Positions 19,105 to 40,717 of a stretch of 40,717 nt of DNA are shown piece after piece. The notes beneath the pieces were generated by a model. The model was given only the letters and a program-made list of their open reading frames with translations. It searched no databases and had not been told where the DNA came from. The stretch is from a virus. Each line of letters starts with the position of its first letter. Positions within the stretch are counted from its first letter, which is position 1. A program made the translations under genes and the position numbers. Location of the stretch: the IMG/VR virus record IMGVR_UViG_3300045988_164919, positions 64,001 through 104,717 of that record. One strand, given 5' to 3'.

Positions 19105-19912
19105 TTAACATTTCCTTTACAATTCTTTTTTTCATAGTAAGATAAACAATCTTATTCATAAAATCTTCAAGTTCTTCATTACCTTCATCCTTGGTCTTAG
19201 AACAATAATCATCAGCTACTCTTGTAATATTATTAATAGCAGTATTTGCTACAATTCGTGCAGTTTCAAGATCATAGTGATAATTTTTTACATCAAGAAG
19301 ATAATCACCCATTGGAGCCTGAAGGCAATCTGCATATTTAACCCCATCAATATAACGTCCAAGATACTGTTCAATACGAAGCAAATGCATAAGCTGCTTA
19401 CTATCATAACCATATGTATCAATCAGATGAGTTTTAGTAGGATATCTATGTTCCATTGCATGATATTTTTCCATAGCAATACCCTTCATTGTCTTAACTG
19501 CCTTGTAAGGATTATAACGTGCAATAGCTTCACGCTCATTAAGCAGTGCCTGCCACTCATTCCAATACACGCTTGATGCCATTTTATAAGGTGTGAAGAT
19601 ACATTCAAGATATGCCATATTCTGTTTCTTCAAACAATCAATGAACAAACGAATATCTTTAAAATCAATGTGTTCATCATTAGGAAGAATCTTGGTATAA
19701 GATACTGGCTTCTTATTTAGTACAATATCTTCAAATGAAGGAAGAACAATAAGTCGGGTATCTACATCAGACGATTGAGTATCAAGACCATAGTTCTGGC
19801 TACCATAAGCCATTAAACTAACCCAATTTTCTCCTTTAACATTAGCTGCTTCTAAATGAGTTTCTACCTTATCCATAACCCATTTATCTGAATGGTAATT
19901 CATAATTATCAC
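19097..19912 (-). CDS. Pol-beta-superfamily (minimal/kanamycin-type) nucleotidyltransferase, 271 aa.
   Basis: It has the motif AYGSQNYGLDTQSSDVDTRLIV (hG[GS]x9-13Dh[DE]h). Confidence 0.55.
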   Translation of the reverse strand: MIIMNYHSDKWVMDKVETHLEAANVKGENWVSLMAYGSQNYGLDTQSSDVDTRLIVLPSFEDIVLNKKPVSYTKILPNDEHIDFKDIRLFIDCLKKQNMAYLECIFTPYKMASSVYWNEWQALLNEREAIARYNPYKAVKTMKGIAMEKYHAMEHRYPTKTHLIDTYGYDSKQLMHLLRIEQYLGRYIDGVKYADCLQAPMGDYLLDVKNYHYDLETARIVANTAINNITRVADDYCSKTKDEGNEELEDFMNKIVYLTMKKRIVKEMLNV

Positions 19913-21795: not shown

Positions 21796-23460
21796 CTAAA
21801 CATAATCATCAGGGTAAATTGCCTTTAGCCGCACCTTGGCATTAGCAATTCTTTCAAGGGACAGAAATGGCTCCCATACCTTCTTATCTACCTTGTCAAC
21901 ATCAATATACTGAAAATCGCCCCACAAGTCTAGCTCCTTCGGCACATCATCGAAATCATAATCTTCATAACAATCATCACAAACATCAATAGGATTTCCA
22001 ACATCTCGACGATGCTTACCATTAGGAGTTTTTATCTCAAACATGTAGGGAAGAGTCTGTTTCTTGAAATCATAATCAAGCCATTTAGTTTCTCCGCAGC
22101 AGCTACAAACCTGGGTGCGGCCCTCTGCACACCAGCTGCAATAAGTTGCACCATCTTCACTACAAAACCAAGCGTCTTCACTATCAATCCAAGCACCGCA
22201 ATCATCACACTGGACTTTACCTTCACAGGTTGCACATACAACTTTATCACATTCTACAAATGCGTCTACATTTCCACTCGGGTCAGCTTCATAGCCTTTA
22301 CCGCAACACATACATTCAGCCACACCAGAATAGCAAACTTCTACTTCTTTTACTTCTGGATTAATATAAGCATAATGATTATCATAATAATCATTATACA
22401 TAGCTCCAGTCCTCATGCGGATATAAACCTGACCAAAATCAGTTTTATTGCTCTGATTCTGCCAAACCTCATACATTTTATCATCATAATGCCAGCCCAT
22501 ATTTTGTTCAGCCAACTGCTTAATCTTATTCAGCACATAATCACGCAGATAAATGTTATTATAAGGATACTGCTTAATTTCAGTAATGATATCCTTATTA
22601 ACAATATAGAGACACCGCCAACGCTTATTGCTCCAAGTTCTGGTATCACGGTCAATAGGATGATAAGGATGTTCAGATTCAACATATGCTTCAAGGATGA
22701 CAGGAGAATTCATCATTTCGACAGTACCAAGACGATAATCACCACCCTGATACCAATTCATGCAGCTCTCCCAGTCACAAGCATTATCACTCATAGTAAG
22801 ATAGTCAAGCGGATGAATAGACAGTACAATATCAGCATTAATCATACGGTCATTCAAAACACGCGAATGAAGAATACGAAACTGCTCAAATGCTTCTTTA
22901 TCCAGCTCAAACCAATCGACAATTTTAGCCATCATTCGCATCAGCTTCATATCACTTTTCAGTTCAAGTGGCTTCGAAGTATCTGCATGTGGACCTCGGC
23001 GAATAGTGACAGATTTGGTACCCCAATCAAACATATACAAATTTTTATTGGCTACAAGAGATTCAGTATCAAGGCAATGTTCAATCATACTACAACACAT
23101 AGCCCGTTCATCCTTGTCAAGAGTGGCATCCATCCAAGAATAATAAATATTAGTAATCTGCTCGTAAGAGTCAATGAATTTTTTAACGTTTGCTAATTCA
23201 GGATTATTATAAATTTCTTCATACATTGCATTGAATTTATCCATCAAATCATCCCCAGATGCCTGATAGGAAATATGATCTTCGACCATCAAATTATTAC
23301 CAAGCAACTCATACAGGTCAAGCTTTTCAGCAGCCCAAAACCGTAGAAGATGATTGATTTCATCTACTGTACAGTAATTATCAGAATGAAGGTACTCTTT
23401 AATATAATCATGCAGCAGATTCTTTTCTTCTTCTGGAATAAGAGTCCTCAAATCCGTCAT
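21796..23460 (-). CDS. Paralog C (554 aa) of the HPLDY/zinc-ribbon family.
   Basis: Uninterrupted ORF with the core SIHPLDYLTMSDNACDWESCMNWYQGGDYRLGTVEMMNSP and a C-terminal cluster of at least 8 CxxC pairs (CMCCGKG...CATCEG...CDDCG...CSWC...CSCCGE...CDDCYEDYD). The + strand ORFs 22012..23196 and 22146..22364 are antisense. Confidence 0.75.
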   Translation of the reverse strand: MTDLRTLIPEEEKNLLHDYIKEYLHSDNYCTVDEINHLLRFWAAEKLDLYELLGNNLMVEDHISYQASGDDLMDKFNAMYEEIYNNPELANVKKFIDSYEQITNIYYSWMDATLDKDERAMCCSMIEHCLDTESLVANKNLYMFDWGTKSVTIRRGPHADTSKPLELKSDMKLMRMMAKIVDWFELDKEAFEQFRILHSRVLNDRMINADIVLSIHPLDYLTMSDNACDWESCMNWYQGGDYRLGTVEMMNSPVILEAYVESEHPYHPIDRDTRTWSNKRWRCLYIVNKDIITEIKQYPYNNIYLRDYVLNKIKQLAEQNMGWHYDDKMYEVWQNQSNKTDFGQVYIRMRTGAMYNDYYDNHYAYINPEVKEVEVCYSGVAECMCCGKGYEADPSGNVDAFVECDKVVCATCEGKVQCDDCGAWIDSEDAWFCSEDGATYCSWCAEGRTQVCSCCGETKWLDYDFKKQTLPYMFEIKTPNGKHRRDVGNPIDVCDDCYEDYDFDDVPKELDLWGDFQYIDVDKVDKKVWEPFLSLERIANAKVRLKAIYPDDYV

Positions 23461-26398: not shown

Positions 26399-26987
26399 AA
26401 GAAATAGAACCTTCCGGCTGCTCACTCAATTGTGCAGTTTTAGTACAATCATATTTAACAAGTTCAACAGTGCCATCTTTATTAACTACACACTTATAAA
26501 TATGTTTAAGTTCAGCATCATTTTCAACTGTTTGCTTAATAAGTTGGGCACTACTAATTGCCGCCTTACGAATTGCCTCTTGGCTTTCTTCTTTAAGTGC
26601 CTGGCAATCTTCTCTCATAAGATTGCAGAATTCAAGACCCTTAAGCAGTTCTGCTTCCTGTTTTGCTTTAGTCTTTTTATTTGTCCACCATTGAATAAAT
26701 TTACGGTATTCCTTATAAGAACCAAAATACACATAAAATCTGCTTTCGCCAATAATATTTTTTTTATCAATTTGATAAGAAATGCTACTACCATTAATAC
26801 ACCATTTATCAGGCTTAATAGCAGAATATTTCATTACTTCATCGAAGGTAAGTTCAACAGTTTTTTCATGCCATTTAATAGCCTCTTCTTTAAAACCTTG
26901 ATAATTTTCCCAGTCTTTGAAATAGCTAAATACTGTAAAACAGATAATAGCAAATACAACAAAAATACCTAAAACAATCAAAAACAT
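26391..26987 (-). CDS. Membrane-anchored protein, 198 aa.
   Basis: Track ORF with an N-terminal TM helix (MFLIVLGIFVVFAIICFTVFSYF) and a soluble C-terminal domain. Confidence 0.55.
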   Translation of the reverse strand: MFLIVLGIFVVFAIICFTVFSYFKDWENYQGFKEEAIKWHEKTVELTFDEVMKYSAIKPDKWCINGSSISYQIDKKNIIGESRFYVYFGSYKEYRKFIQWWTNKKTKAKQEAELLKGLEFCNLMREDCQALKEESQEAIRKAAISSAQLIKQTVENDAELKHIYKCVVNKDGTVELVKYDCTKTAQLSEQPEGSISCL

Positions 26988-27532
26988 TATTTATTATCCT
27001 CCTTCTCCTGTCGCAAGTCATGGTCTTCGCCATCATAGATTTCACGATATTTAGTAAACAGAGAACCATCATTGTAATAATATCTAATATTATTCCAACC
27101 ATTATAATGGTCAGTCAAATTAGGCCAGTCTACAATACGTGCCTGCCGTTCAAGTTCCTGCTGCGGCACTACTCTATGTCTCTTGGAGTTCCATTCCTTT
27201 GAATTTTCTACGCTGGCGATAATAACCATAAGCTGATAACTATCGAAATGGGGGAAACGGCTTCTGATTTCTTCTCTCTGTCCAAGAGTCAAACAATTAG
27301 TATCAATGATAATATCTGCATTGTCCATTTCTGCACAATGTACAATCTGATATAATGTTTGCCAGACTTCAAACTTATGACGGCGGTTGCATTCATCGCC
27401 ATTAAAGACAGCGTACAATTCATCAGGGTTTACATATCGAATGTGATTCATCTTTGCGAAGGATTTCGCGAATGTAGTCTTTCCATTTGCACTCAAGCCG
27501 CACATCATATATAGAGTCGCCATCAACTTCAT
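26987..27532 (-). CDS. P-loop kinase (polynucleotide kinase / AAA-like NTPase), 181 aa. The true start may be an internal Met.
   Basis: Walker A GLSANGKTTFAKSF, and Walker-B-like IIIDTN. The first roughly 85-110 nt overlap ORF 27423..27851 in another frame. Both frames are open there. Confidence 0.6.
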   Translation of the reverse strand: MKLMATLYMMCGLSANGKTTFAKSFAKMNHIRYVNPDELYAVFNGDECNRRHKFEVWQTLYQIVHCAEMDNADIIIDTNCLTLGQREEIRSRFPHFDSYQLMVIIASVENSKEWNSKRHRVVPQQELERQARIVDWPNLTDHYNGWNNIRYYYNDGSLFTKYREIYDGEDHDLRQEKEDNK

Positions 27533-27851
27533 CTCCTCTCAGTCTGCTTGCCAATATATATTCCATATAGATAGAATCTACTGTTGGATTTTCTATTCTT
27601 TCTATACTAATTACATCTTCTTCAGTAGTAATTACAATATAAAAATCATCAAAGCATTTAATTAATGCTTTATACCATTTATGACCATGCCAACACCAAT
27701 AGTCTTCAAGAATAACTTGACCTGATTTAAGCAGAACATGGTATTTATGTAATGTGTCTTCTTTTTTAATACGACCCATTAAATAATCCATTTGATTAAA
27801 TACAAAAGGATTGCCTGGACCAGACATTACCTTGCTCATGTCAAATTCCAA
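27423..27851 (-). CDS. Hypothetical protein, 142 aa.
   Basis: Track ORF MEFDMSKVMSGPGNPFVFNQMDYLMGRIKKEDTLHKYHVLLKSGQVILEDYWCWHGHKWYKALIKCFDDFYIVITTEEDVISIERIENPTV... Confidence 0.5.
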   Translation of the reverse strand: MEFDMSKVMSGPGNPFVFNQMDYLMGRIKKEDTLHKYHVLLKSGQVILEDYWCWHGHKWYKALIKCFDDFYIVITTEEDVISIERIENPTVDSIYMEYILASRLRGDEVDGDSIYDVRLECKWKDYIREILRKDESHSICKP

Positions 27852-29801: not shown

Positions 29802-30959
29802 TTAGTTCTCCTTTTTAAAATCAAAAATTATTTTTAATTCTTCTACTTTATCGAGCTGTTCCCAAGGGCTATTACATTCAATGCGACCAAAATGACCGAA
29901 GCAAGCATAGGGTAAATAGCGAGTATGCTTTAAATCAAATTTATGAATAATACTACGCGGTGCAAAATCAAATGTCTGATTAACTGCTTCAAGAATTTCA
30001 GCGATAGGTTTCTTTTCTGTGCCAAAACAATTAATATCAATAGATGCAGGTTCTGTCTGCCCAATAATATAAGCAACTTGAATCATACATTTATCACAAA
30101 CACCAGAAGCTACAAGATTTTTAGCTACATAACGTGCCATATAAGCACCAGATCTATCTACTTTAGAACTATCTTTACCGCTAAATGCTCCGCCACCATG
30201 TGGTGCATAACCACCATATGTATCTACAACGATTTTACGTCCTGTTAATCCGGTATCAGCCGCAGGTCCGCCCTTTACAAACTTACCTGTTGGGTTAATA
30301 TAAAATTTACAATCTTTTTTAATGGCATAACCTTGAAGGGCAATATTACAAATGTTCGTAATATCGGGCGTTATTTCCTTAATACTATACTTGTCTTTGT
30401 GTTGGGCCGATACGACAATTGTATCTACCCCTTCAAAGTTGCCATCATCATCGTATTGGACAGTTATCTGACATTTGCCGTCAGGTAACGCCCAAGGTAG
30501 CAAATCATTTTTATACTTACTAAACATAATGACCGAGATATTGTTAGCAAGCTGCTGGGCAATAGGCATATAATTTTCTGTTTCGTTAGTTGCATAACCA
30601 AACATCATGCCTTGATCTCCAGCACCATCTCTATCGACACCCGCAGCGATGTCAGGGGATTGATTTACTACATTAATAATATATGAACAAGTGTCGCAGT
30701 TAAATCCTGCTTCATCATTGTCATAACCAATAAACCTTAAAGTCTCTCTTGCAATTTCCTGATAAGGAATAGATTGTTCTGTTTTAGCTGTAATCTCTCC
30801 CATTATGTGGAAAAGACCTGGACTAATAGTACATTCACAAGCTACTCGGGCATCAGGATCAAGCTGGAGGACATAATCCAGAATAGCATCACTTACCTAA
30901 TCACAAACCTTATCAGGATGACCGGCAAAAACGCTCTCACTGGTAAATAAATAACTCAT
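29802..30959 (-). CDS. metK: S-adenosylmethionine synthetase MetK (about 385 aa) with one in-frame TAG at a conserved Gln position.
   Basis: Track ORF 29802..30803 has the MetK signatures GAGDQGMMFGYATNETENYMP, GGGAFSGKDSSKVDRSGAY and INPTGKFVKGGPAADTGLTGRKIVVDTYGG. Reading 5' of it through TAG (30897-30899) gives MSYLFTSESVFAGHPDKVCD-[TAG]-VSDAILDYVLQLDPDARVACECTISPGLFHIMGEITAK. This aligns with E. coli MetK [27 protein letters not shown], with TAG falling on the Q. SD is AAGGAGGAAATATTAT-ATG and the ATG is at 30959-30957. Confidence 0.8.
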
Positions 30960-30975
30960 ATAATATTTCCTCCTT

Positions 30976-31022
30976 TATTATATAAATATTATATAATATT
31001 ATTTTTTATTTTTCAATTTTTT
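30976..31022 (-). promoter_or_regulatory. Conserved promoter motif copy (class B) upstream of metK.
   Basis: Plus strand ttattatataaatattatataatattattttttatttttcaatttttt. Confidence 0.45.
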
Positions 31023-31431
31023 CTGCCGACACTAAATAACAATATTTATCAACATATTCTTGTTCACTCATATCTGTTGGTTTATGAATAAATGCTAAAT
31101 AATGTTTTAGCCAATCAATAGTTTTATCTAAATTAAAATCTTCAGTAGCAAGATAACTTTCTGTTTCAGTATTACCTTGATGGTCGGCAACGATAATATT
31201 CCAGTATTCTTTTTTTCTGTTTTGATTTACTTTCTCTTTAGTATAATAGCAATGCTCTAAATAATTAACCATTGCCGCAGAATTATCATACTTATGTCCG
31301 AAAAAATTTTCAGCAATATCCAATAGAATACGATTAATAAATGATTGAGTTATGGTATCTTTATCTATAAAAACTTCTTTTACCATTTCATCTTTTGGTG
31401 TATAGAAGTTTAAAATATAATAATTCATCAT
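31006..31431 (-). CDS. Hypothetical protein, 141 aa.
   Basis: Track ORF MMNYYILNFYTPKDEMVKEVFIDKDTITQSFINRILLDIAENFFGHKYDNSAAMVNYLEHCYYTKEK... Confidence 0.5.
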   Translation of the reverse strand: MMNYYILNFYTPKDEMVKEVFIDKDTITQSFINRILLDIAENFFGHKYDNSAAMVNYLEHCYYTKEKVNQNRKKEYWNIIVADHQGNTETESYLATEDFNLDKTIDWLKHYLAFIHKPTDMSEQEYVDKYCYLVSAEKIEK

Positions 31432-31865
31432 TTTACAGGTTCCACCTTACAATAGCAAGCATTATAAAAATCTTCTTTTTCATCGTATTCATCACGATGT
31501 TCCGGCCACCATTCTACTGTTAATTCTGTTTTCATTCCATGTTCAAATTGTTCTATATTATCAGACCCATTCGCTACAATCCAGGTATTAGATTCGCCAT
31601 AAGGTGTATAACCAATTAGTCTAAAACAATCTTCATCTTTCTTGTCACGTGCTTCATCTGTAATAAGAGTTCTATTATAATAACATTTACTTAATACATC
31701 AGCTACATTACGATATTCCATATAATGCTCATGATAACAATCGCAAGCTACTTCCATTAACATCTGACCAGTAATATCATACCTTCGTGCTTCGGCAGGT
31801 GTTGCACGCACTTTCCTATAATCGCCTTCTGGCGACCAAAATTCATATAAATAGTCCTATGACAT
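31428..31865 (-). CDS. Hypothetical protein (about 145 aa, one TAG) with CxH/CxxC motifs.
   Basis: Track ORF 31428..31811 extends 5' to an ATG at 31865-31863 with a strong SD (AAGGAGGACAAT-ATG), through TAG at 31857-31859: MS-Q-DYLYEFWSPEGDYRKVRATPAEARRYDITGQMLMEVACDCYHEHYMEYRN... Confidence 0.5.
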
Positions 31866-31923
31866 ATTGTCCTCCTTTGCCCAAAATGGCTTGACATAAT
31901 TAAAATTTTTTTGTATAATATAT

Positions 31924-32376
31924 TTAGAAAATAGTTCTATCCAAACTGTTTAAATAGAATGTTGTAATAATATCTTTACCAAATTCAATACCGAACCACC
32001 AAGGTGTAGTGAATGGGACAAAATTTTTATAGATAATATTAACTACGTGTGGCGTTTTATCTGTTAATTCAAAATTAGTATAATAATCCAGATGATTTAT
32101 TGCCAAGCCTGTTTCTCTAGTATTATATACAATATTTCCGTTCCGAGTATACCAAATATAATTATCTTCGTCAAGTTTCAATAATTCATAATCTTCTATA
32201 ATATGCTCTCGTGTTTCTTGGTTCGGCACAACAAATGCACCAATTACACCGCCAACAAGTAGAGGAAGAATAATGCAAATAATTGCAAATAAACAAACAA
32301 CTTCTTTAATAGTGGGGTTAGAAGAAATACAAAGGCATACAATGAAAAATACAAAACCAATAGCTAACCAAATCAT
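31924..32376 (-). CDS. Membrane protein, 150 aa.
   Basis: Track ORF with two N-terminal TM helices (MIWLAIGFVFFIVCLCISS...CLFAIICIILPLLVGGVIGAFVV). Confidence 0.5.
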   Translation of the reverse strand: MIWLAIGFVFFIVCLCISSNPTIKEVVCLFAIICIILPLLVGGVIGAFVVPNQETREHIIEDYELLKLDEDNYIWYTRNGNIVYNTRETGLAINHLDYYTNFELTDKTPHVVNIIYKNFVPFTTPWWFGIEFGKDIITTFYLNSLDRTIF

Positions 32377-32486
32377 ATTAATTCTCCAAATGTAACCGCA
32401 AATAAATAGCTACTCCTAATAGGATTAGACCCGGAATGAGAAACCATAACGGGTCTAATGTAGAATGAATAATTGCCAACATTAAT

Positions 32487-32948
32487 TTAATGACCAAAAT
32501 ACAACCACCACTTTGCCGTAGATACTTCTGCAAGGGCAAGTTTACAATTTTTAATGCTCACTAAATAATTATTGTAAATTTCCAACTGCCGTTTAACTAA
32601 TTCACTACTGGACAATTCAGGATAAATAGATGCGAAGATAACAGCATTTTCAGGAGTCAATGCAGCATATGTATCTTTTTCGTGATCAAGATAATTAGCG
32701 ACCACATCATTAATTGTCACTTGGATGGTTTGCATTTCAGTTTCATATACTTCAATTTTCTTATTGTATTCAGGCACTTTACTAATTGATACAGCACAAA
32801 CGATAATGCCAACAGCTGCAACAAATGCGAGGATGCCGCCAATTGCTACCCAGCCTACACCTTTTCCTTCATAAAAGCCATATCTTAAATTAAGCATGAC
32901 ACCAACAATAATGAGAATAATGCCAATAACAAAAGCCACAATAGTCAT
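32487..32948 (-). CDS. Membrane protein, 153 aa.
   Basis: Track ORF with two TM helices (MTIVAFVIGIILIIVGVMLNL...WVAIGGILAFVAAVGIIVCAV). Confidence 0.5.
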   Translation of the reverse strand: MTIVAFVIGIILIIVGVMLNLRYGFYEGKGVGWVAIGGILAFVAAVGIIVCAVSISKVPEYNKKIEVYETEMQTIQVTINDVVANYLDHEKDTYAALTPENAVIFASIYPELSSSELVKRQLEIYNNYLVSIKNCKLALAEVSTAKWWLYFGH

Positions 32949-33302
32949 TTATTTATCCTCCATAATACAATCACAGACGAATTGATTTACCCATTCCCAG
33001 AAATGATAACCATTGAACATAGTAAAATCAAGGTCATCAAATCTCTTACTGTCAAGCAGTTTCTTTTCTTTATCCCAAATAGTCAGATATACAACAGCAT
33101 AATTACCGCTGCCATCTTCATAATTGCCATGAAAAATATCATCACAATGAATTACAAATCTGCCCTTCCACAGAGGGTCGTCATGCAGATTCTTGTTCAT
33201 CTTCTTAATACGGTTAACAACCTTACGTTTCAGATTCTTCTTACTATTGGAACTGTGAGAACTTTCCCAATACTTATCATTCTTATCCATTACTTCTTCC
33301 AC
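32949..33302 (-). CDS. Hypothetical protein, 117 aa.
   Basis: Track ORF MEEVMDKNDKYWESSHSSNSKKNLKRKVVNRIKKMNKNLHDDPLWKGRFVIHCDDIFHGNYEDGSGNYAVVYLTIWDKEKKLLDSKRFDDLDFTMFNGYHFWEWVNQFVCDCIMEDK. Confidence 0.5.
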   Translation of the reverse strand: MEEVMDKNDKYWESSHSSNSKKNLKRKVVNRIKKMNKNLHDDPLWKGRFVIHCDDIFHGNYEDGSGNYAVVYLTIWDKEKKLLDSKRFDDLDFTMFNGYHFWEWVNQFVCDCIMEDK

Positions 33303-33625
33303 TCCTTAATTCTGTACTGATACATACCTTTAGAATAATCTGTCGGGTTTTTCACTACAACGAAAATTGCATCATAATAAGGCGGATTGTCAATAACGGT
33401 ATAATCAATATCTTTATGATAACCGCATCTATCAAGTGCAATCTTAACTGTCTGTACCATGCCTTCACGTACAATCCAAATACTATGAGTATTGGCTAGA
33501 TTTGCCTGTACCATCAAGGCGCTATCAGGAATAGATTTCAATGCCTTATAAATAACTCTACTCGCGCAATCCTTTTCGCCGATTACGCCTTCTGCAATCA
33601 GTCTTTCTTCATCAGTCTTTACCAT
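33290..33625 (-). CDS. Hypothetical protein, 111 aa.
   Basis: Track ORF MVKTDEERLIAEGVIGEKDCASRVIYKALKSIPDSALMVQANLANTHSIWIVREGMVQTVKIALDRCGYHKDIDYTVIDNPPYYDAIFVVVKNPTDYSKGMYQYRIKEWKK. Confidence 0.5.
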   Translation of the reverse strand: MVKTDEERLIAEGVIGEKDCASRVIYKALKSIPDSALMVQANLANTHSIWIVREGMVQTVKIALDRCGYHKDIDYTVIDNPPYYDAIFVVVKNPTDYSKGMYQYRIKEWKK

Positions 33626-33951
33626 TGTTTTACATCCTCCACATAAATAAATTCAAGGTATTTGTCTACATAAGACATAAATGCCAATTTGCCTTCGCCC
33701 AAGAGACAAGAAGTTTCATAGAGGAACCACTGTTCTGTTGCTTCCAGACTTGTTTCATACATTTGCTTTTGGATGTAATAGATAAGTTCATCTGCTACAT
33801 CTTCTACAACTGCCCGCCGCACTTCTTCAATTTCGGCAAATGTCTCTTTCCATGTTGGTTTGCGTCCAAGAGCAATGAAATCATAGGTGTCCATAAAATC
33901 ATAATTGCCTTCGTCAAGCGGCAAATGATTAATAACAATTAAGCCATCCAT
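33619..33951 (-). CDS. Hypothetical protein, 110 aa.
   Basis: Track ORF MDGLIVINHLPLDEGNYDFMDTYDFIALGRKPTWKETFAEIEEVRRAVVEDVADELIYYIQKQMYETSLEATEQWFLYETSCLLGEGKLAFMSYVDKYLEFIYVEDVKQW. Confidence 0.5.
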   Translation of the reverse strand: MDGLIVINHLPLDEGNYDFMDTYDFIALGRKPTWKETFAEIEEVRRAVVEDVADELIYYIQKQMYETSLEATEQWFLYETSCLLGEGKLAFMSYVDKYLEFIYVEDVKQW

Positions 33952-34304
33952 TAATATGCCCTCTCTACAATATAATTGCTAAAAATCGGCGGGTATTCGC
34001 CAAATACTTCATTAAATTTCTTTTCCATTTCATGCTCTTTATTTACATCAATTTCAAAATGGTTAAGACGATTATAATTAAATGACGAATCAAGGTCAAT
34101 ACTAAAAAGGCGATAACCAAAAAAGATATGGTCTAGCCAATCATAGCCATAGCAATCAGAAATTACAAGGTCATCTTCTTGAAGAATTTCAAATGCTTCA
34201 TTCGGGTCAATCTTTGCTCGTTCACAGTATTCTTTAAATGTAGGAACATTATCTTCACCAAACATAAAACCGCGGCCTACAAATGCTTCATACTCAACAC
34301 TCAT
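33951..34304 (-). CDS. Hypothetical protein, 117 aa.
   Basis: Track ORF MSVEYEAFVGRGFMFGEDNVPTFKEYCERAKIDPNEAFEILQEDDLVISDCYGYDWLDHIFFGYRLFSIDLDSSFNYNRLNHFEIDVNKEHEMEKKFNEVFGEYPPIFSNYIVERAY. Confidence 0.5.
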   Translation of the reverse strand: MSVEYEAFVGRGFMFGEDNVPTFKEYCERAKIDPNEAFEILQEDDLVISDCYGYDWLDHIFFGYRLFSIDLDSSFNYNRLNHFEIDVNKEHEMEKKFNEVFGEYPPIFSNYIVERAY

Positions 34305-34333
34305 GATATATCCTCCTTGACAATTTTTTTATT

Positions 34334-34382
34334 TCTCATTTCTTTATATATATATTTTATAATATTTTTTTATAAAAATAAA
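34334..34382 (-). repeat. Promoter cassette copy (49-nt exact repeat of 29003-29051).
   Basis: tctcatttctttatatatatattttataatatttttttataaaaataaa. Confidence 0.55.
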
Positions 34383-34383
34383 T

Positions 34384-34412
34384 AAGGCCGATTGGGCTAA
34401 CCAACCGACCTT
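34384..34412 (-). terminator. Strand-specific terminator hairpin.
   Basis: aaggccgattgg-gctaa-ccaaccgacctt. The two mismatches on the + strand (C.A and A.C) become G.U wobbles on the minus-strand RNA, so the 12-bp stem only forms in the minus transcript. Confidence 0.5.
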
Positions 34413-34908
34413 ATGTAATAGGTTTATAAATTCCAGGAGGAAGTGTAATAAATGTTTCATCACTAAGGGCATTCCAGAGACAGAGCCATTGACGGTAATC
34501 ATTATATTTTGTGTAATTAATTGTTTTTACATTAGGTGTTTCGTCATCTGTACAAGTTTTAATGAATGTTGAAACATTATCAAGGTTATATGTCTGATAA
34601 TACCCATTATCTAAAAGAACAACAATAGAATTATCTGCACCCCACTGAACATATGTATCTTCAGTAAATGGCTTAAGCTCATGATAGTTTTCTATTTCAA
34701 TTATTGAATGTTCTTTGCTGCTTGGAACTTCACAATAAATAACAGCTAATAGTCCACTAATCATAAGAGCAACCGCACAAGTGGCAAATGCCATCCACAG
34801 GAATTCGGCCTTAAACCAGTCCCAAATTTCTGAAAAACTATAGTATTTAATATATTGATGAATACTATAAATAATGGTAATGGCAGCGGCAATCAAGAAA
34901 AAAATCAT
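34411..34908 (-). CDS. Membrane protein, 165 aa.
   Basis: Track ORF with two N-terminal TM helices (MIFFLIAAAITIIYSI...FLWMAFATCAVALMISGLLAVIY). Confidence 0.5.
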   Translation of the reverse strand: MIFFLIAAAITIIYSIHQYIKYYSFSEIWDWFKAEFLWMAFATCAVALMISGLLAVIYCEVPSSKEHSIIEIENYHELKPFTEDTYVQWGADNSIVVLLDNGYYQTYNLDNVSTFIKTCTDDETPNVKTINYTKYNDYRQWLCLWNALSDETFITLPPGIYKPIT

Positions 34909-35120
34909 TCTTCTACTTTTCCTCCCATAAATTCAATAAAATCGCGGTTTTCGAGAGCATTAATAGTAAAATACCAATGATGGAGAGTCTCATCTGGGGT
35001 CCCAACGATAGCCAATTCATACCAATTTCTTTTCATTTTGCGAATATACATAATAGGAATAAGATCTGCGTTAACACGGACAGGGTATTCATATCCTTCA
35101 ATTTTAAGTTTATAAATCAT
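34905..35120 (-). CDS. Small protein, 71 aa.
   Basis: Track ORF MIYKLKIEGYEYPVRVNADLIPIMYIRKMKRNWYELAIVGTPDETLHHWYFTINALENRDFIEFMGGKVEE. Confidence 0.45.
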   Translation of the reverse strand: MIYKLKIEGYEYPVRVNADLIPIMYIRKMKRNWYELAIVGTPDETLHHWYFTINALENRDFIEFMGGKVEE

Positions 35121-35332
35121 ATATTACTCCCACAATTTTTACAATAAATTTTATCATCTACAATAAGGACTTGATTATTTTGAAGGATAGCACCGCACCT
35201 GGTACAATGCGGTGGGTTAGAGCAGAAGAATTTGCAGCCTGGGTCTTCATCATCGACACGCAAGCCAGAGACAATGCGGCATTGGCCTTGGACACGATAG
35301 CCGCATCTGCCGCATCGACGCAAATTTACCAC
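35117..35332 (-). CDS. Zinc-ribbon protein, 71 aa.
   Basis: Track ORF MVNLRRCGRCGYRVQGQCRIVSGLRVDDEDPGCKFFCSNPPHCTRCGAILQNNQVLIVDDKIYCKNCGSNI has four CxxC pairs. Confidence 0.5.
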   Translation of the reverse strand: MVNLRRCGRCGYRVQGQCRIVSGLRVDDEDPGCKFFCSNPPHCTRCGAILQNNQVLIVDDKIYCKNCGSNI

Positions 35333-35556
35333 AGTACGTTCTCCTGAATTGCATCAAGTGCTTCGGCACTTACTTCAAGACAATCATCAGGAGCGAATGC
35401 TTCAAGCTCTACCTTATTGATGCTATCAAAATACTGACAAATCTTTTCCATAGCATCAGTATATCCTTCATCAACGTCATTATCAGAATACACAAGTCCT
35501 GTCTCATCTTTTGACTTGTCATCAAAATTCCAGTTTACTTTATATCTAAAATACAT
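35326..35556 (-). CDS. Small acidic protein, 76 aa.
   Basis: Track ORF MYFRYKVNWNFDDKSKDETGLVYSDNDVDEGYTDAMEKICQYFDSINKVELEAFAPDDCLEVSAEALDAIQENVLW. Confidence 0.45.
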   Translation of the reverse strand: MYFRYKVNWNFDDKSKDETGLVYSDNDVDEGYTDAMEKICQYFDSINKVELEAFAPDDCLEVSAEALDAIQENVLW

Positions 35557-35558
35557 AT

Positions 35559-35834
35559 TTAATCCTCCAAACTTGGAATAGCTCTAATGTAGTAATTAAT
35601 TCCGCCAAAGAAAAGAGTAATACATTCATTACTGCAATGATATTTCTTCCACCAATCACGTAATGTATCTGTATATTCTTCAAGAGTATCGGCATCATCA
35701 AGTTTGTTAATGCCATAATTATATTCGATAAATGCTTCTTCTTCAGCAATAGATAGAACAAGTTCTTCGGCAGAAGCTCGGCTATTACAGCAAATTAAAT
35801 CATCATTGCAGCTATTCCAAACAACGTATTTCAT
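35559..35834 (-). CDS. Tandem paralog 1 of 5 (91 aa) in a small acidic protein family.
   Basis: It shares the motif ...(R/D)A(S/Q/E)AEE(L/F)(V/I)LS(I/C)AEEE(A)... with its four neighbours: SRASAEELVLSIAEEEAF. Confidence 0.5.
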   Translation of the reverse strand: MKYVVWNSCNDDLICCNSRASAEELVLSIAEEEAFIEYNYGINKLDDADTLEEYTDTLRDWWKKYHCSNECITLFFGGINYYIRAIPSLED

Positions 35835-36128
35835 TTAGTTAAGCTCACTTTCATAAATTCCATTTAAATTATATCCACCCTTATAAAGCATATAACCTTC
35901 AAGAGTTTTATTATATTTGGAAGCTAACCTTTTCCATTCTGTTAAAACATTTTCTTCAGTGTAAATAGATATTAAATAATTATATGTATTTACGCTTTCT
36001 TGTTCTACACATGAAAGAACAAATTCTTGTGCATCATTAAGGTTTTTAAAAGAATATACTTCATAATCATTACCATAATTATTAATTTCACCATAATCAT
36101 TACTATCTATAACTATATAAGTTTTCAT
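35835..36128 (-). CDS. Tandem paralog 2 of 5 (97 aa).
   Basis: LNDAQEFVLSCVEQESV. Confidence 0.5.
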   Translation of the reverse strand: MKTYIVIDSNDYGEINNYGNDYEVYSFKNLNDAQEFVLSCVEQESVNTYNYLISIYTEENVLTEWKRLASKYNKTLEGYMLYKGGYNLNGIYESELN

Positions 36129-36153
36129 CTTAAATTTCCTTTAATATATTTCA

Positions 36154-36441
36154 TTAATCAGGCACTTCACTTTCAAAAATTTTATTAAGAAATAGGACAG
36201 AACCTTCATTTAAAATATAATGTTCAAGACTTTTATGCCGAAGGGCGGCCATTTCTTTCCATTCATGCAAGACATATGCGCCACTAAGGACAGGAGCCCA
36301 TGTAATATTATTATTAAACCAATTTAAAGCACCTTCTTCGGCACATGAGAGAATAAATTCTTCTGCATCACCACGAGTTTTAAAAGAGTAAGTATTAAAG
36401 ACAAGTTCATAATCGGCTTCAACAACTGTATAAATTTTCAT
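36154..36441 (-). CDS. Tandem paralog 3 of 5 (95 aa).
   Basis: TRGDAEEFILSCAEEGAL. Confidence 0.5.
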   Translation of the reverse strand: MKIYTVVEADYELVFNTYSFKTRGDAEEFILSCAEEGALNWFNNNITWAPVLSGAYVLHEWKEMAALRHKSLEHYILNEGSVLFLNKIFESEVPD

Positions 36442-36443
36442 AA

Positions 36444-36719
36444 TTAATATTCTCCTAATTCGTCAATAATAAATCGGCCACTCATAAACCAAAGAGCTGT
36501 GCCGTAATGAGTTTTGCATTTCACTTCTGGATGTCTTGATTTTCTAAATTCAAAACTGTTATTGAAGAAGTCATTTACACCTTCATACATTGCTTGATAA
36601 TATACATCTTCTTCAGTTAATGCAAGGATAGCTTCTTCGGCGTCTGCCCGAGTGTTACAAATATATCGAGGGATTTCGCAACAAGCATCATCATCAATTT
36701 CAGAAATTAAATATTTCAT
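36444..36719 (-). CDS. Tandem paralog 4 of 5 (91 aa).
   Basis: TRADAEEAILALTEEDVY. Confidence 0.5.
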   Translation of the reverse strand: MKYLISEIDDDACCEIPRYICNTRADAEEAILALTEEDVYYQAMYEGVNDFFNNSFEFRKSRHPEVKCKTHYGTALWFMSGRFIIDELGEY

Positions 36720-36721
36720 TT

Positions 36722-37054
36722 TTAATACTCCTCTCCGATAGAATAATTATAATATTCACCAGCCATAAGAAGGGTCCAACCATAGAAAGAAATATTTTTA
36801 TCATCAAATGGAAATCTAAATTTATTATACTCTTTCCATTCAAGAATTTTATCATTGAGATAAACTTCCATGGGATTTTCACCAGGCTCTACTGTAATTC
36901 CTGTTTCATCATAATAATAATCATCAAGGAATGCACTATATGCTTCTTCTTCGGCGGCGGCAAGAATCAGTTCCTGCACATCAGCTTCAGTATCGCAAAT
37001 ACCAAGAATACCGGGATAAAAGTTATCAAAATAATCATAAGCAATATACTTCAT
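36722..37054 (-). CDS. Tandem paralog 5 of 5 (110 aa).
   Basis: TEADVQELILAAAEEEAY. The + strand ORF 36700..36882 is antisense. Confidence 0.5.
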   Translation of the reverse strand: MKYIAYDYFDNFYPGILGICDTEADVQELILAAAEEEAYSAFLDDYYYDETGITVEPGENPMEVYLNDKILEWKEYNKFRFPFDDKNISFYGWTLLMAGEYYNYSIGEEY

Positions 37055-37064
37055 AATTTATTTT

Positions 37065-37120
37065 CTCCCTCATTTTTATATATATATTTTAACAAATTTT
37101 TTTATAAAAATAAAAGAGCC
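37065..37120 (-). promoter_or_regulatory. Conserved promoter motif copy (variant of the 49-nt cassette) upstream of the paralog array.
   Basis: Plus strand ctccctcatttttatatatatattttaacaaatttttttataaaaataaaagagcc. Confidence 0.45.
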
Positions 37121-37137
37121 AGATTTGCTCTGGCTCT
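37115..37137 (-). terminator. Terminator hairpin.
   Basis: agagccag-atttgc-tctggctct is an 8-bp stem with a T-rich tail on the minus strand. Confidence 0.45.
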
Positions 37138-37141
37138 TTAG

Positions 37142-37444
37142 TTATTTATTTACTTCTTCAACGATTACAATAGCATTATGAATTACAATACGATTACCAT
37201 TATAATCAAAGAATGTTTCATTTTCTGACTCGCTAATATCAATCATTGCCGGACCATATTCCCGTAAAAGATTACCATTGTAATCATAGACAGACACAAT
37301 ACGATAAAGGCCGCCAGTGTAATTGCTTCTCCAACTCTTAATAGTTCGCTGAAAATTCGCACCATTGAAAGTAAGAACCAAAAGACCAATTACAAGAATA
37401 ATTACAACAAGAATTACTGCAACACTACCACTTCTACTTCTCAT
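37142..37444 (-). CDS. Membrane-anchored protein, 100 aa.
   Basis: Track ORF MRSRSGSVAVILVVIILVIGLLVLTFNG... has an N-terminal TM helix. Confidence 0.5.
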   Translation of the reverse strand: MRSRSGSVAVILVVIILVIGLLVLTFNGANFQRTIKSWRSNYTGGLYRIVSVYDYNGNLLREYGPAMIDISESENETFFDYNGNRIVIHNAIVIVEEVNK

Positions 37445-37667
37445 ATTAATTCTCCTTATAAATCATTTGTTTTACAAAATAAATACATTACGAATGCAAT
37501 GATTACAAAACCAAAAATAAGTATTTTAATCATTGTACAAACTGCCAAGAGCATAAAAGATAAGACAAATAAAAATGGTTAAGAAAAATAGTCCCATTAA
37601 TCAGTAGCCCTCGCTAATACAATTCCCATGATTATGCCAATTACGGCACAAATTACTACAATTACCA

Positions 37668-39017
37668 TTACAGTTCCTCCGCGATCGTTTCATCTACTGG
37701 AGTAGTATCAGCAACCGCAATGCCTTCAATGCACTTGAAGGAGAAATTCTTGATCTTATATGCCGTGAAAGAGGGCTTATCAACCAGACGCACAACGACA
37801 CCTTCACGCACATGTCGCGGATCAATCGGTTCAGGACCATCATAATACTGTTCTGCCTTATTCATAATCCATTCGCCTGCGGTGATAGTATCATCATTTT
37901 CAGATGCCGGATGCTCGGGGATATAGCCACGCCATTCAACAGGAACGAATTTTACGCCCATCTGTTCACAACGATACCGAGTATATTCAGGAGAATATTC
38001 CACAGTATAACCATCATGAGTAGTTAGAGTCATACGATAAACATAAAAATCGTTCTTCGGAGCAGTAACACCAGTAGGGTCGCAGCCATAAGAGAAGGTA
38101 GTCATATCGCCATATTGCTTAATGAATGCCTTATCGTTGGTTTTCTTATTGGAAACAGAACCCATAATCGGCACGCCATCATCAGTAAAACCAATAATTT
38201 CAGCATAACAGGTTTCGCCTTCATGCAGCTTGCCTTTAATTGCTTCATGGAAATGCTTACGGAATTCATTAGAACCATAGAAGCCGCCATCATAGCTGAC
38301 TAGCAGAGTGCGGCGAGTGCCGTCAATGTAATCATACTGATAGATAGGTTTGCCATCTTTACGAGTAATCTTATCCCACAGAGTACGCTTATAGCCCTTG
38401 AGAACAGGTAGATAGCCGATTCGTGCAGAAGTACCATGGAGCTTACGAGTAATTTCAATAAGGTCGCCAGGCTTGAATGCATTAAGGTTATAAGCAAGCT
38501 GGGCAGTATCAATATGCTCTTTGAACAGAGGAGCAATCGGATCCTTATGCTTGCGAGTCTTGCTCACATTAGAGTTATTGGTATTATTCTGCTTTCTAGT
38601 ACGCGGAATATACTTATTGCAGATAGGATGACCATTAACTTCGTTAATAATGTCGCCCACCTTTAGATAAGCACTTGCATTATCGTCATAGCAATAATTG
38701 AAACAGCTAATCGGCAGATACAGACCATCGGAACGTTCGCCACGCAGTCTGATAGCAGTAATATTACGCTTATCTACTTCCATATAACCAGTGTCAGCAG
38801 TCCCATCGGGAAGCTTGCGGCACAGATGATTGGCGATGCAAAATTCGAGGGAAAGCTGGAGGTCGCAGGGGAAGTAGACACCAATATCGCCAACCTGCGT
38901 ATCAATGGAAACGCAAGTATCATTGCCGAAGAAAGTTGCGATGTAGAGCTTGTCTGCATTAGGGTGTGCCCGCAGCTCTTTAACTTTTACAATATAACCA
39001 CAGTGATTAATATCCAT
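37668..39017 (-). CDS. ATP-dependent RNA ligase (Rnl2/Rnl5-like nucleotidyltransferase) with an N-terminal tRNA-binding-like OB domain, 449 aa.
   Basis: N-terminus GYIVKVKELRAHPNADKLYIATFFGNDT resembles Myf/EMAP/Trbp111 tRNA-binding OB domains (HPNADKLYV consensus). The ligase motif I is LIEITRKLHGTSARIGY (KxHG lysine-adenylate motif as in T4 Rnl2 EKIHGTN). The + strand ORFs 37812..38027, 38115..38303, 38436..38666 and 38826..39062 are antisense. Confidence 0.65.
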   Translation of the reverse strand: MDINHCGYIVKVKELRAHPNADKLYIATFFGNDTCVSIDTQVGDIGVYFPCDLQLSLEFCIANHLCRKLPDGTADTGYMEVDKRNITAIRLRGERSDGLYLPISCFNYCYDDNASAYLKVGDIINEVNGHPICNKYIPRTRKQNNTNNSNVSKTRKHKDPIAPLFKEHIDTAQLAYNLNAFKPGDLIEITRKLHGTSARIGYLPVLKGYKRTLWDKITRKDGKPIYQYDYIDGTRRTLLVSYDGGFYGSNEFRKHFHEAIKGKLHEGETCYAEIIGFTDDGVPIMGSVSNKKTNDKAFIKQYGDMTTFSYGCDPTGVTAPKNDFYVYRMTLTTHDGYTVEYSPEYTRYRCEQMGVKFVPVEWRGYIPEHPASENDDTITAGEWIMNKAEQYYDGPEPIDPRHVREGVVVRLVDKPSFTAYKIKNFSFKCIEGIAVADTTPVDETIAEEL

Positions 39018-39197
39018 TGTATTCTTCCTTTCTTAATTTTAATTAGTTTTCTGCTGGAGTAAAAAAGTCAAGGCTTTCGGTTTGCCATCTATTTGCTTCG
39101 GGGTCAAAATAAAGGACACGGAAATATCCTGTATCGTCTCGGAAGATTTGTGCAATCGTGTAAGTCTTACCGGAGACAACGTTTTTCATTCTCATAA

Positions 39198-39473
39198 TTA
39201 AATCCTTTCGTTGTATGGAATGCGGCTATAGCCCATAATCATAGGCCATACCATTTTGATTAAATCTGGATAAGAAGTTAGAGTGCTTAAATATTCTATC
39301 TTCTTTTCTTCTACTATTGGTGTATATGCGGGACGAGAATATTCTTTTTTGAGTTCTACCAAGTTTTTTGCCAATTGAACTCTTTCGTCCAAAAGGCGTA
39401 CTATCTTCTCATCATATACGGCAATCTCGTTTCGCATTTCAGTTGCACGGTCAAGATATTCATCAAGATTCAT
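39198..39473 (-). CDS. Chorismate-mutase-like (AroQ class) small protein, 91 aa.
   Basis: LDEYLDRATEMRNEIAVYDEKIVRLLDERVQLAKNLVELKKEY fits the AroQ pattern R..ID.iD..iv.LL.eR..la..v...K. Confidence 0.4.
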   Translation of the reverse strand: MNLDEYLDRATEMRNEIAVYDEKIVRLLDERVQLAKNLVELKKEYSRPAYTPIVEEKKIEYLSTLTSYPDLIKMVWPMIMGYSRIPYNERI

Positions 39474-39756
39474 TCGGACGCCACCTTACAATCATCGTAT
39501 TATTGGTAAAACAAGTTGTAAACTTATTAGAATTAAGAATTTCTTGAAGTTTCTTGACGGTATAATTGCTTGACGACGGAGTATCATCGGGAGAAATGAC
39601 AATGGTATAGGCATATGCACCATTTGTTGCCGCTTGTAGCATTGCCGGCGTATTATTTGTGATGATTTCTTCTGCTCTTTCAGTTGCCACACGTTCCTTA
39701 TTAGCTTCTGCTTCAGAGGTAAGAGTAGTAAGTTTAGCAAATAAATTTTTATCCAT
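39463..39756 (-). CDS. Hypothetical protein, 97 aa.
   Basis: Track ORF MDKNLFAKLTTLTSEAEANKERVATERAEEIITNNTPAMLQAATNGAYAYTIVISPDDTPSSSNYTVKKLQEILNSNKFTTCFTNNTMIVRWRPNES. Confidence 0.5.
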   Translation of the reverse strand: MDKNLFAKLTTLTSEAEANKERVATERAEEIITNNTPAMLQAATNGAYAYTIVISPDDTPSSSNYTVKKLQEILNSNKFTTCFTNNTMIVRWRPNES

Positions 39757-39774
39757 TTTTTATTTTTCCTCTAT

Positions 39775-39826
39775 TGTTTATATATATATTTTATAATATT
39801 TTTATTTATTTTTCAATTAAAACGGA
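39775..39826 (-). promoter_or_regulatory. Conserved promoter motif copy (class B).
   Basis: Minus strand CCGTTTTAATTGAAAAATAAATAAAAATATTATAAAATATATATAAACAA. Confidence 0.45.
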
Positions 39827-39830
39827 TAAG

Positions 39831-40017
39831 CAATGTATTCGCGTAGTTTTTTATATGCGGCACGGCAATATTCTTCATCATCAAATTTAATAGTCTCTTT
39901 TTAATTATTCCAATAGTAGAGATTAATGGTACATTTAGTAGGCTGGAAACCGATAGCTCGAATGTCTGTTGTCTTGATACGCTTTTGGCGTTGAAGGCCT
40001 GTGTAAATTTTTACCAT
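39831..40017 (-). CDS. Small ORF interrupted by an in-frame TAA. It is either two tiny genes or a pseudogene, or TAA is read through (unresolved).
   Basis: ATG at 40017-40015 (ATGGTAA overlaps the stop of 40011..40307). It translates MVKIYTGLQRQKRIKTTDIRAIGFQPTKCTINLYYWNN-TAA-KETIKFDDEEYCRAAYKKLREYIAYPF-TAA. Both halves look protein-like. Confidence 0.3.
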
Positions 40018-40307
40018 GGGTCAACATCTCCATAGCTACCATAATATTTCATATTGGTGTTATTTACTGCTTCATTGCGTGCGGCTCTCATAATATCCAT
40101 CCATTTGTCTTGTGCCGCTTCCCAATATTTCTTGTCTTTGAAGGAATAAACAGCTATAGTCTCTTCTGTGGTATCTCCTACAGTTTGAATTTGCATTTTA
40201 TATTTTTCATTTGGGTCTGTATAAAAACTAATATAGAGAATAGCTGATGTTTTATAGCAGCATAGATTTTTATTATCTGTTGTAAATGTGAAATATGGAT
40301 TAATCAT
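40011..40307 (-). CDS. Hypothetical protein, 98 aa.
   Basis: Track ORF MINPYFTFTTDNKNLCCYKTSAILYISFYTDPNEKYKMQIQTVGDTTEETIAVYSFKDKKYWEAAQDKWMDIMRAARNEAVNNTNMKYYGSYGDVDPW. Confidence 0.5.
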   Translation of the reverse strand: MINPYFTFTTDNKNLCCYKTSAILYISFYTDPNEKYKMQIQTVGDTTEETIAVYSFKDKKYWEAAQDKWMDIMRAARNEAVNNTNMKYYGSYGDVDPW

Positions 40308-40504
40308 TGCAGACTCCTAAATGATTTCACTGCTGTTTCAAAAGCATCATAAGAATCAAAATCAAAAGTTTCAGAACCCTTATATTTAGTTGTAATAGTC
40401 ATATGATAGGATTCATCTTTATAACATCTTACACATACAATACCTTCAGGATTGTAATAATACATATTATCATCATTAGTGGCGAAAACAAAAAATTTAC
40501 TCAT
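40304..40504 (-). CDS. Small protein, 66 aa.
   Basis: Track ORF MSKFFVFATNDDNMYYYNPEGIVCVRCYKDESYHMTITTKYKGSETFDFDSYDAFETAVKSFRSLQ. Confidence 0.45.
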   Translation of the reverse strand: MSKFFVFATNDDNMYYYNPEGIVCVRCYKDESYHMTITTKYKGSETFDFDSYDAFETAVKSFRSLQ

Positions 40505-40717
40505 GCAAGAGCCTCCAGATATGCGTCTACCGTTTTAGTATAATCGGCATAATTAATTTTTGTATTCCAAGAGCGGATTTCTGAAAGAATATCATCGATT
40601 GCCGCGGTTGCATCAGGGTTTCTAGAAATATCTGTTGCAGGGGCAGATTTGTTGGTGATTGCGAATTTTTCGCACGCTGCAATATTTTTCTTGAAATTCA
40701 CTTTTCCATAATTGCCT
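40501..40717 (-). CDS. Hypothetical protein, partial (the 5' end lies beyond the window).
   Basis: Track ORF 40501..40701. The frame stays open upstream to the window edge (..GNYGKVNFKKNIAACEKFAITNKSAPATD...). Confidence 0.4.
   Translation of the reverse strand, partial: GNYGKVNFKKNIAACEKFAITNKSAPATDISRNPDATAAIDDILSEIRSWNTKINYADYTKTVDAYLEALA

Follow-up and report, generated by a model that had tools for sequence, protein, structure and literature searches.

RNA ligases of the Rnl5 family, such as DraRnl (DRB0094) and the Naegleria gruberi enzyme NgrRnl (PDB 5cot), are proteins of about 340 residues in which an OB domain followed by an adenylyltransferase domain is the standard architecture (PMC1807946, PMC7261155). 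The likeness of the N domain of DraRnl to the B2 domain of PheRS was pointed out in 2007 (PMC1807946). In NgrRnl the OB domain contacts the gamma-phosphate of ATP and positions the pyrophosphate for adenylylation of the lysine (PMC7261155); no Rnl5 enzyme is known to bind tRNA. RNA repair in T4 and in jumbo phages has already been described, calcineurin-like phosphatases and nucleotidyltransferases of the RlaP family included (PMC7824862). A ligase of the DRB0094 family is also 140-fold enriched in TAG-recoded gut phages that carry theta ribozymes, where it was guessed to be a CCA-adding or aminoacylating enzyme (PMC10879173). Here we analyze a stretch of 40,717 nucleotides (nt; "the window"), positions 64,001 to 104,717 of the IMG/VR record IMGVR_UViG_3300045988_164919, which derives from an uncultured phage whose genome measures about 186-197 kb and encodes an Rnl5-type ligase at 37668..39017 (Table 1). 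Probably this ligase carries out the sealing step in a phage module for RNA end repair, the other parts of which, a P-loop kinase, a metallophosphoesterase (MPE) and an RlaP protein, are scattered in the genome, with tRNAs as the likely substrates. What the analysis shows is the family membership of these proteins, their intact catalytic residues and the conserved clustering of their genes in relatives. The phage system is a divergent member of an already known type of RNA repair.

An earlier examination of this DNA without database searches (the sequence-only reading) had picked out the same four open reading frames (ORFs) by their motifs and had seen in them an RNA end-healing and sealing toolkit. 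The motifs are all present: HPNADKLYI and TRKLHGTS in the ligase (residues 18-26 and 190-197), GxxxxGKT in the kinase (as GLSANGKT), GDxHG and GNHE in the MPE, and GS...SDVD in the nucleotidyltransferase. Profile searches returned the families that it had named, with the Rnl2/Rnl5-type ligase narrowed to Rnl5 and the Pol-beta nucleotidyltransferase to RlaP; they did not place the ligase among DNA ligases or mRNA capping enzymes devoid of an OB domain. The ligase matches PF09414 (RNA_ligase) at 32.7 bits (cut-off 27) and is covered end to end by PHROG 968 'RNA ligase' with an E-value of 9e-64, a full-length match that excludes chance. Its nucleotidyltransferase motifs comprise K192 of motif I (codon 38442..38444), E273 of motif III, Y327/R328 of motif IIIa, E405/G406 of motif IV (REGVVVR) and K421/K423 of motif V, and all of these residues are invariant in two alignments with homologues of 33-84% identity. 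A search of the PDB with the single sequence found only MetRS-C (E 0.49), after which a family profile of diverse ligase homologues was used. With this profile the best solved relative is NgrRnl, followed by T4 Rnl2. The significant part of the NgrRnl match is the N-terminal domain (E 1e-5), and motifs I and IV are colinear with those of NgrRnl in weak, sub-threshold stretches only.

The ligase has the domain order of DraRnl and NgrRnl, as well as a motif I of the KxHG form shared with DraRnl and a motif IV that reads EGVVV. As in these enzymes there is no C-terminal appendage: the chain ends 26 residues past motif V, and the predicted model has only a terminal helix there. It differs from them in being about 110 residues longer, owing to a basic linker of 50 residues and to insertions in the nucleotidyltransferase domain, and is just 22% identical to NgrRnl. 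The equivalog level of TIGR02306 (RNA_lig_DRB0094) was missed by far (35.6 bits against 151.15, with residues 10-203 alone matched), which marks the protein as a member of a divergent, longer phage subfamily and not a textbook orthologue; compared with Rnl5 proper it sits in the phage-dominated subfamily PHROG 968. Homologues occur in 380 phage records, nearly all annotated as RNA ligase, the best match being that of Bacillus phage vB_BcoS-136 (44% identity). Thousands of metagenomic proteins belong to the family, and more than 100 metagenome copies are full-length and near-identical to the ligase, some of them on contigs of 185-197 kb. By its family, the gene would encode an active ATP-dependent RNA ligase of the Rnl5 type.

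The sequence-only reading had regarded the union of a Myf/EMAP-like OB domain with a KxHG adenylyltransferase as a fusion to a tRNA-binding-like domain. The OB domain is indeed there, with a fold of the Trbp111/EMAP/PheRS-B2 type and the HPNADKL signature, but its combination with the catalytic domain is nothing special, being the usual Rnl5 layout. PF01588 (tRNA_bind), which had been put forward as the profile to try, found nothing in the ligase at E ≤ 1, and the region matched PF21189 (PHA02142 OB fold) below threshold (17.9 bits against a cut-off of 27). The link to tRNA-binding domains is one of fold and motif only.

The second component is a kinase that matches PF13671 (AAA_33) at 48.5 bits. 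A word-indexed search for homologues of the kinase gave close relatives only, so an exhaustive search was used. A profile of 30 family representatives matched PSTK (1.7e-15), the kinase domain of Clostridium thermocellum Pnkp (CthPnkp; 2e-10), Pnkp1 (7e-9) and T4 Pnk (7e-7), whereas deoxynucleoside kinases matched at the P-loop only. In fold the protein is closest to Pnk-type enzymes, with PSTK the second-best match. Directly after its ligase, vB_BcoS-136 encodes a kinase-HD protein, and the kinase half of that protein aligns with the window's kinase at E 6e-11. The order of the profile matches and this alignment together mark the kinase as Pnk-like; it groups with polynucleotide and tRNA kinases and not with deoxynucleoside monophosphate kinases, and a 5'-OH end is its candidate phosphoacceptor. 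D37, R118 and R120 are conserved, and there is no arginine three residues past the aspartate (DELY); the Pnk enzymes of T4 and C. thermocellum have an arginine at that place. The protein stands alone, unlike most repair kinases, which are fused to a phosphatase; remoter homologues of it are kinase-HD fusions, and no HD homologue was found in the window. The kinase ORF overlaps the preceding ORF of 142 residues (27423..27851, minus strand) by 110 nt in a different frame. A relative (L002) keeps both overlapping ORFs and has an overlap free of amino-acid changes in the kinase frame only, which identifies this frame as the conserved one. The gene caller used for the L002 contig overlooked the kinase. 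The likely starts of the kinase and RlaP genes were chosen by comparison with relatives.

The nucleotidyltransferase matches PF10127 (RNA repair pathway DNA polymerase beta family) at 29.7 bits (cut-off 23) and PHROG 388 at E 3e-21. Its GSQNYG, SDVD and DFKD segments, which supply the catalytic GS/DxD/D set, are conserved with relatives; a PDB search returned nothing specific. RlaP proteins, of which T4 NrdC.11 is one, extend the 3'-OH of damaged RNAs by one or two nucleotides (PMC12776372). The sequence-only reading had envisaged a role for the four genes in adding or repairing CCA ends. For the nucleotidyltransferase, a CCA-adding enzyme is ruled out by the family, since PF01743 was not matched and only RlaP and a weak MTPAP-like match were found. 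The MPE matches PF00149 (Metallophos) at 46.7 bits (E 6.6e-12) and PHROG 1649 at E 7e-23, and has the full set of binuclear motifs (GDCHGD, GDCG, GNHE, SHTCP and GHYH). In the PDB its single sequence found no match and its family profile found PP2A alone (E 0.016).

The main evidence that these proteins act together comes from their gene neighborhoods. In the window the four genes are scattered over 21 kb, with only RlaP and the MPE adjacent, on the minus strand that carries nearly every gene. We searched 70 RlaP-centered IMG/VR loci with flanks of 3 kb for the ligase, kinase and MPE and collapsed them into 24 non-redundant clusters at 80% RlaP identity; the scans of IMG/VR with single proteins yield close relatives only, and the counts refer to the 3 kb around RlaP, not to whole genomes. 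Half of the clusters (12 of 24) have the MPE, often with the ligase, which is itself present in nine. The kinase occurs in five, being recognizably HD-fused in four of these, and never together with the MPE. An RNase T-like exonuclease occurs in six, five of which also have the MPE, and six clusters have none of these genes. Typical arrangements are RlaP-MPE-RNase T-like exonuclease-ligase (locus L091) and ligase-RlaP-(GIY-YIG homing endonuclease)-kinase/HD (locus L047). Among cultured phages, vB_BcoS-136 and PBC2 have ligase-kinase/HD, Lysinibacillus phage LC76P1 has ligase-RlaP-kinase/HD in a row, and in mycobacteriophages a kinase-HAD gene of the T4 type lies ten genes away from the ligase. 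Such repeated clustering across distant lineages points to a functional module, and this conserved gene order in related phages lends the toolkit idea independent support. Taken as a set, the four genes probably serve to mend broken RNAs, tRNAs for example, in a way already familiar from other phages. That the MPE and kinase-HD exclude each other beside RlaP further suggests a 3'-phosphoesterase role for the MPE, and the presence in the window of an MPE and a kinase devoid of an HD domain fits the idea that it replaces the HD phosphatase. We predict accordingly that the PHROG 1649 phosphoesterase family may be an RNA 3'-end healing enzyme. This RlaP-centered neighborhood, with the MPE or a mostly HD-fused kinase as alternative partners, is a modest addition to what was known.

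In the loci just described, the RNase T-like exonuclease of L091 (4681..5580), which lies between the MPE and the ligase, is of the DEDD type, and no homologue of it was found in the window. The homing endonuclease of L047 (3906..4568) lies between RlaP and kinase-HD, and a class-V aminotransferase resembling cysteine desulfurases (463..1566) is found upstream of the ligase in the same locus.

The activities of all these enzymes are inferred from family membership, the substrate of the MPE and tRNA as the target are inferred as well, and a mechanism can be proposed on this basis. The likely substrates would be host or phage tRNAs whose anticodon loop a host ribonuclease has cut. The kinase would phosphorylate their 5'-OH ends, the MPE would open 2',3'-cyclic phosphates and strip 3'-phosphates, and RlaP would restore one or two lost nucleotides at the 3'-OH. 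The ligase would react with ATP to form ligase-(Lys192)-AMP, pass the AMP to the 5'-phosphate end and join the activated end to an RNA 3'-OH that base pairing keeps in place. The body of the tRNA, which would hold the two halves together, might provide the duplex-like context required by Rnl5 enzymes.

Several points weigh against this proposal. T4 tRNA repair relies on Rnl1 and not on a nick-sealing ligase, and we know of no host anticodon nuclease for this uncultured phage. The ligase gene lies about 18 kb from the RlaP-MPE pair and about 10 kb from the kinase gene, which bears on their co-expression. PSTK, a Ser-tRNA kinase, outscores Pnk in the profile search with the kinase. The MPE has no specific similarity to the phosphatase domain of CthPnkp or to the lambda phosphatase clade, and a 38%-identical homologue of it, in a temperate phage, has no RNA-repair genes as neighbors. 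Finally, the characterized Rnl5 enzymes seal duplex nicks, and their physiological substrates are not known (PMC5397189).

In its parts (5' kinase, 3' phosphoesterase, RlaP, ATP-dependent ligase and a tRNA array) the predicted heal-and-seal set equals those of T4, with Pnkp and Rnl1, and of the jumbo phages (PMC7824862). It differs from them in that the ligase is of neither the Rnl1 nor the Rnl2 family but of Rnl5, the kinase lacks a HAD or HD fusion partner, the candidate phosphatase is a separate calcineurin-like enzyme, and the genes are dispersed instead of adjacent. In CthPnkp the kinase, MPE and ligase form one polypeptide as against three separate proteins here, and unlike in the Pnkp1/Rnl/Hen1 systems no Hen1 methyltransferase was seen.

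Table 1. Features of the window, with their positions in it.
Feature	Position	Strand	Remarks
Rnl5-family RNA ligase, predicted ATP-dependent, 449 residues	37668..39017	-	
Ligase N-terminal OB domain, Trbp111/EMAP/PheRS-B2 type, residues ~1-136	38610..39017	-	
Ligase Lys/Asn-rich linker, residues ~137-185	38463..38609	-	partly disordered in the model; predicted local distance difference test (pLDDT) <50 at 141-157
Ligase nucleotidyltransferase domain, residues ~186-449	37671..38462	-	
Stand-alone P-loop kinase, Pnk/PSTK clade, 181 residues, candidate 5'-OH RNA kinase	26987..27532	-	likely start 27523
RlaP-family Pol-beta nucleotidyltransferase	19097..19912	-	likely ATG start 19903; PF10127, PHROG 388
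Calcineurin-like MPE, candidate 2',3'-cyclic phosphodiesterase/3'-phosphatase	18120..18899	-	197 nt downstream of RlaP
tRNA gene array, 14 Rfam tRNAs, candidate substrates	3645..7470	-	
tRNA with tRNA-like insert of 73 nt	7322..7470	-	
tRNA with tRNA-like insert of 58 nt	5947..6079	-	
Hepatitis delta virus (HDV)-like ('theta') ribozyme candidate	4319..4374	-	RF02682, 20.7 bits, E 0.023, below gathering
Second HDV-like candidate, 3' of CCA-less tRNA-Trp	~3585..3644	-	P1/P2/CUAA layout, by eye
Regions with TAG apparently read as sense	29802..30974; 9209..10555; 7899..9240; 11233..12660	-	

The phage that carries this kit shows no DNA-level match to a collection of 50,697 deposited phages (megablast of 30000..40717), and TAG appears to be a sense codon in it, read as Gln (genetic code 15). 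In MetK, the S-adenosylmethionine (SAM) synthetase, a TAG stands exactly at the conserved Gln of GHPDKxCDQ, and the N-terminal domain of the enzyme is regained once TAG is read through. Seven TAGs stand in frame within a radical SAM/SPASM-like gene, and the low-GC, seemingly ORF-poor region of 7.9-10.6 kb resolves into long ORFs under readthrough. Among 45 long ORFs the stop codon is TAA in 30, TGA in nine and TAG in six. The ligase, kinase, MPE and RlaP genes contain no TAG and have the same boundaries under either code. With the same ligase family, an origin in a gut metagenome, TAG as Gln, a tRNA array and some CCA-less tRNAs followed by candidate HDV-like ribozymes, the phage appears to belong to the TAG-recoded, theta-ribozyme-bearing gut phages (PMC10879173). 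The fold and motifs of the ligase and the neighbors of its family (RlaP, MPE, kinase-HD and the RNase T-like exonuclease) indicate a conventional strand-joining ligase that is part of an end-repair module. A gene that is common among gut phages, and was earlier read as a candidate for CCA addition or aminoacylation, is thereby firmly assigned to a family. That such a kit coincides in one phage with insert-bearing tRNAs and with tRNAs flanked by ribozyme candidates is a further modest addition, and a phage with both CCA-less and insert-bearing tRNAs offers a convenient system for finding the targets of Rnl5 ligases.

The tRNA array raises the possibility, which we entertain only tentatively, that the healing enzymes mainly mature the phage's own tRNAs and do not repair damage, although the two functions are compatible. 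Theta ribozymes 3' of CCA-less tRNAs would release the trailer, and the tRNA would then end in a 2',3'-cyclic phosphate and need processing of the MPE/RlaP type: the MPE (kinase-HD elsewhere) would clear the phosphate, and RlaP, a host CCA enzyme or both would extend the end. CCA is encoded by 11 of the 14 tRNAs and missing from three, and not, as the sequence-only reading had it, present in about half. In favor of this scheme, besides the apparent recoding, the HDV model match begins one base past the discriminator of a CCA-less tRNA-Met and has the elements P1 (AGAUAC/GUAUCU), P2 (UUAAUCAA/UUGAUUAA) and a GCUAA segment, and, judged by eye, a similar layout follows the CCA-less tRNA-Trp. In a relative (L014) both tRNA-Met and tRNA-Trp encode CCA and there is no ribozyme after tRNA-Met. 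Moreover, tRNAs with theta ribozymes rarely encode CCA, and the ligase enrichment noted above was found in the same phages (PMC10879173). However, the first ribozyme match is under the Rfam gathering score and the second candidate was found by no model. Trimming of 3' ends requires neither a 5' kinase nor a ligase, and the ligase-kinase pairing is also found in Bacillus phages and mycobacteriophages, in which theta ribozymes are unreported.

The window also contains the two tRNAs with nested inserts that the sequence-only reading had noticed, and we consider it improbable, if chemically attractive, that the ligase rejoins the halves of such tRNAs. Both inserts sit in the anticodon loop and end in CCA. 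With the inserts removed exactly, what remains is an Ile(UAU)-like tRNA of 76 nt and a Lys(UUU)-like one of 75 nt, whose 7-nt loops read CUUAUAA and CUUUUAA, respectively. The insert would be cut out by host RNase P together with a 3' endonuclease, and Rnl5 could directly seal the resulting 3'-OH and 5'-phosphate ends, without need for healing, hence the attraction. The first insert alone scores as a tRNA at 33.1 bits (gathering 29), and its whole gene is identical at 145 of 149 positions in a relative (L020), with all changes in loops, while a neighboring protein is just 68% identical; the exact junction was found in two IMG/VR contigs only. Of the second insert, a degenerate tRNA-Val, just the acceptor stem and T arm are left, which form the minimal substrate of RNase P/Z. 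Lak megaphages have an 'enigmatic' tRNA intron that 'may encode a tRNA' (PMC6784885) and carry a distant homologue of the ligase. Against this, the outer tRNA is represented in L014 by an orphan 3' half alone, which comes after a full tRNA-Val; a matching 5' half was not found, and the second insert-bearing gene may therefore be recombination debris. ARAGORN offers another splice register (Trp and Met), the ligase family is common in phages without insert-bearing tRNAs, and a cut exactly after an encoded CCA is an unusual bacterial route. The more general proposal, that in TAG-recoded gut phages a tRNA-like 'handle' ending in CCA is excised from candidate Ile-UAU and Lys-UUU genes and the nick sealed by Rnl5, we likewise hold to be doubtful. 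If true, it would constitute a protein-enzyme route of tRNA splicing in bacteria and would explain both the tRNA introns of Lak phages and the enrichment of DRB0094 ligases in TAG-recoded gut phages. The suggestion of the sequence-only reading that the kit ligates the exons of these tRNAs and repairs CCA ends is speculation.

That the four genes are functionally unrelated, with the ligase sealing RNA-containing duplex nicks in replication or genome repair, the MPE acting as a protein or nucleotide phosphatase and the kinase targeting a small molecule or aminoacyl-tRNA, would accord with their dispersal in the window, with the protection of Deinococcus against radiation by DraRnl, whose substrates are not known (PMC5397189), with the weak relationship of the MPE to PPP-type protein phosphatases as its closest solved relatives and with PSTK as the top profile match of the kinase, but is unlikely given that genes homologous to the four recur close together, within 3 kb, over 24 divergent lineages and in cultured phages, and that the MPE and the kinase (HD-fused in four of five clusters) replace each other beside RlaP.

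Two further elements of the tRNA array deserve mention. The gene at 4585..4655 (minus strand) is a tRNA by Rfam (48.5 bits) that ARAGORN missed; its anticodon loop is AUUUAAU, and the anticodon UUA would read UAA, and UAG by wobble, making it a possible suppressor. No tRNA with a CUA anticodon was found in the window, and there is one in L020. The element at 4468..4558 (minus strand) is a permuted tRNA-like structure with the order T arm, acceptor-like stem, D arm. It resembles the Y RNA-like family YrlA weakly, but we did not adopt this identification, because its 28-29 bits fall short of the gathering score of 69 and a Ro-binding stem is not apparent; no Ro/TROVE gene was seen in the window.

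The ligase gene is flanked upstream by a small chorismate mutase-like protein (39198..39473, minus strand; CM_2 by the Pfam match of a relative's gene) and downstream by five tandem small ORFs of 91-110 residues (35559..37054, minus strand), which look like paralogues with an MKY/MKI start and a common (A/E)EE(F/L)(I/V)L...EE motif. Pfam searches with ten neighboring ORFs found a peptidase M28 alone and no more RNA-repair genes. A peptidase M28-like protein with a Cys-rich tail is encoded at 12636..13634 (minus strand). Three large paralogues of 400-554 residues (11353..12555, 15150..16808 and 21796..23460, minus strand) have no Pfam match; they share Cys-rich, zinc-ribbon-like C-termini and the motif S(I/V)HPLDYL(T/S)(M/L)S(D/E)N...W(E/R)SC...YR(A/L)G. 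With TAG read as Gln, 8587..9240 (minus strand) encodes a protein of 217 residues with a long Cys/Ser/Gly-rich repeat tail (CSGSCSGCSGSC...). It adjoins the radical SAM/SPASM-like gene at 9209..10555 (minus strand), and the two together bear a likeness to a peptide-maturase pair.

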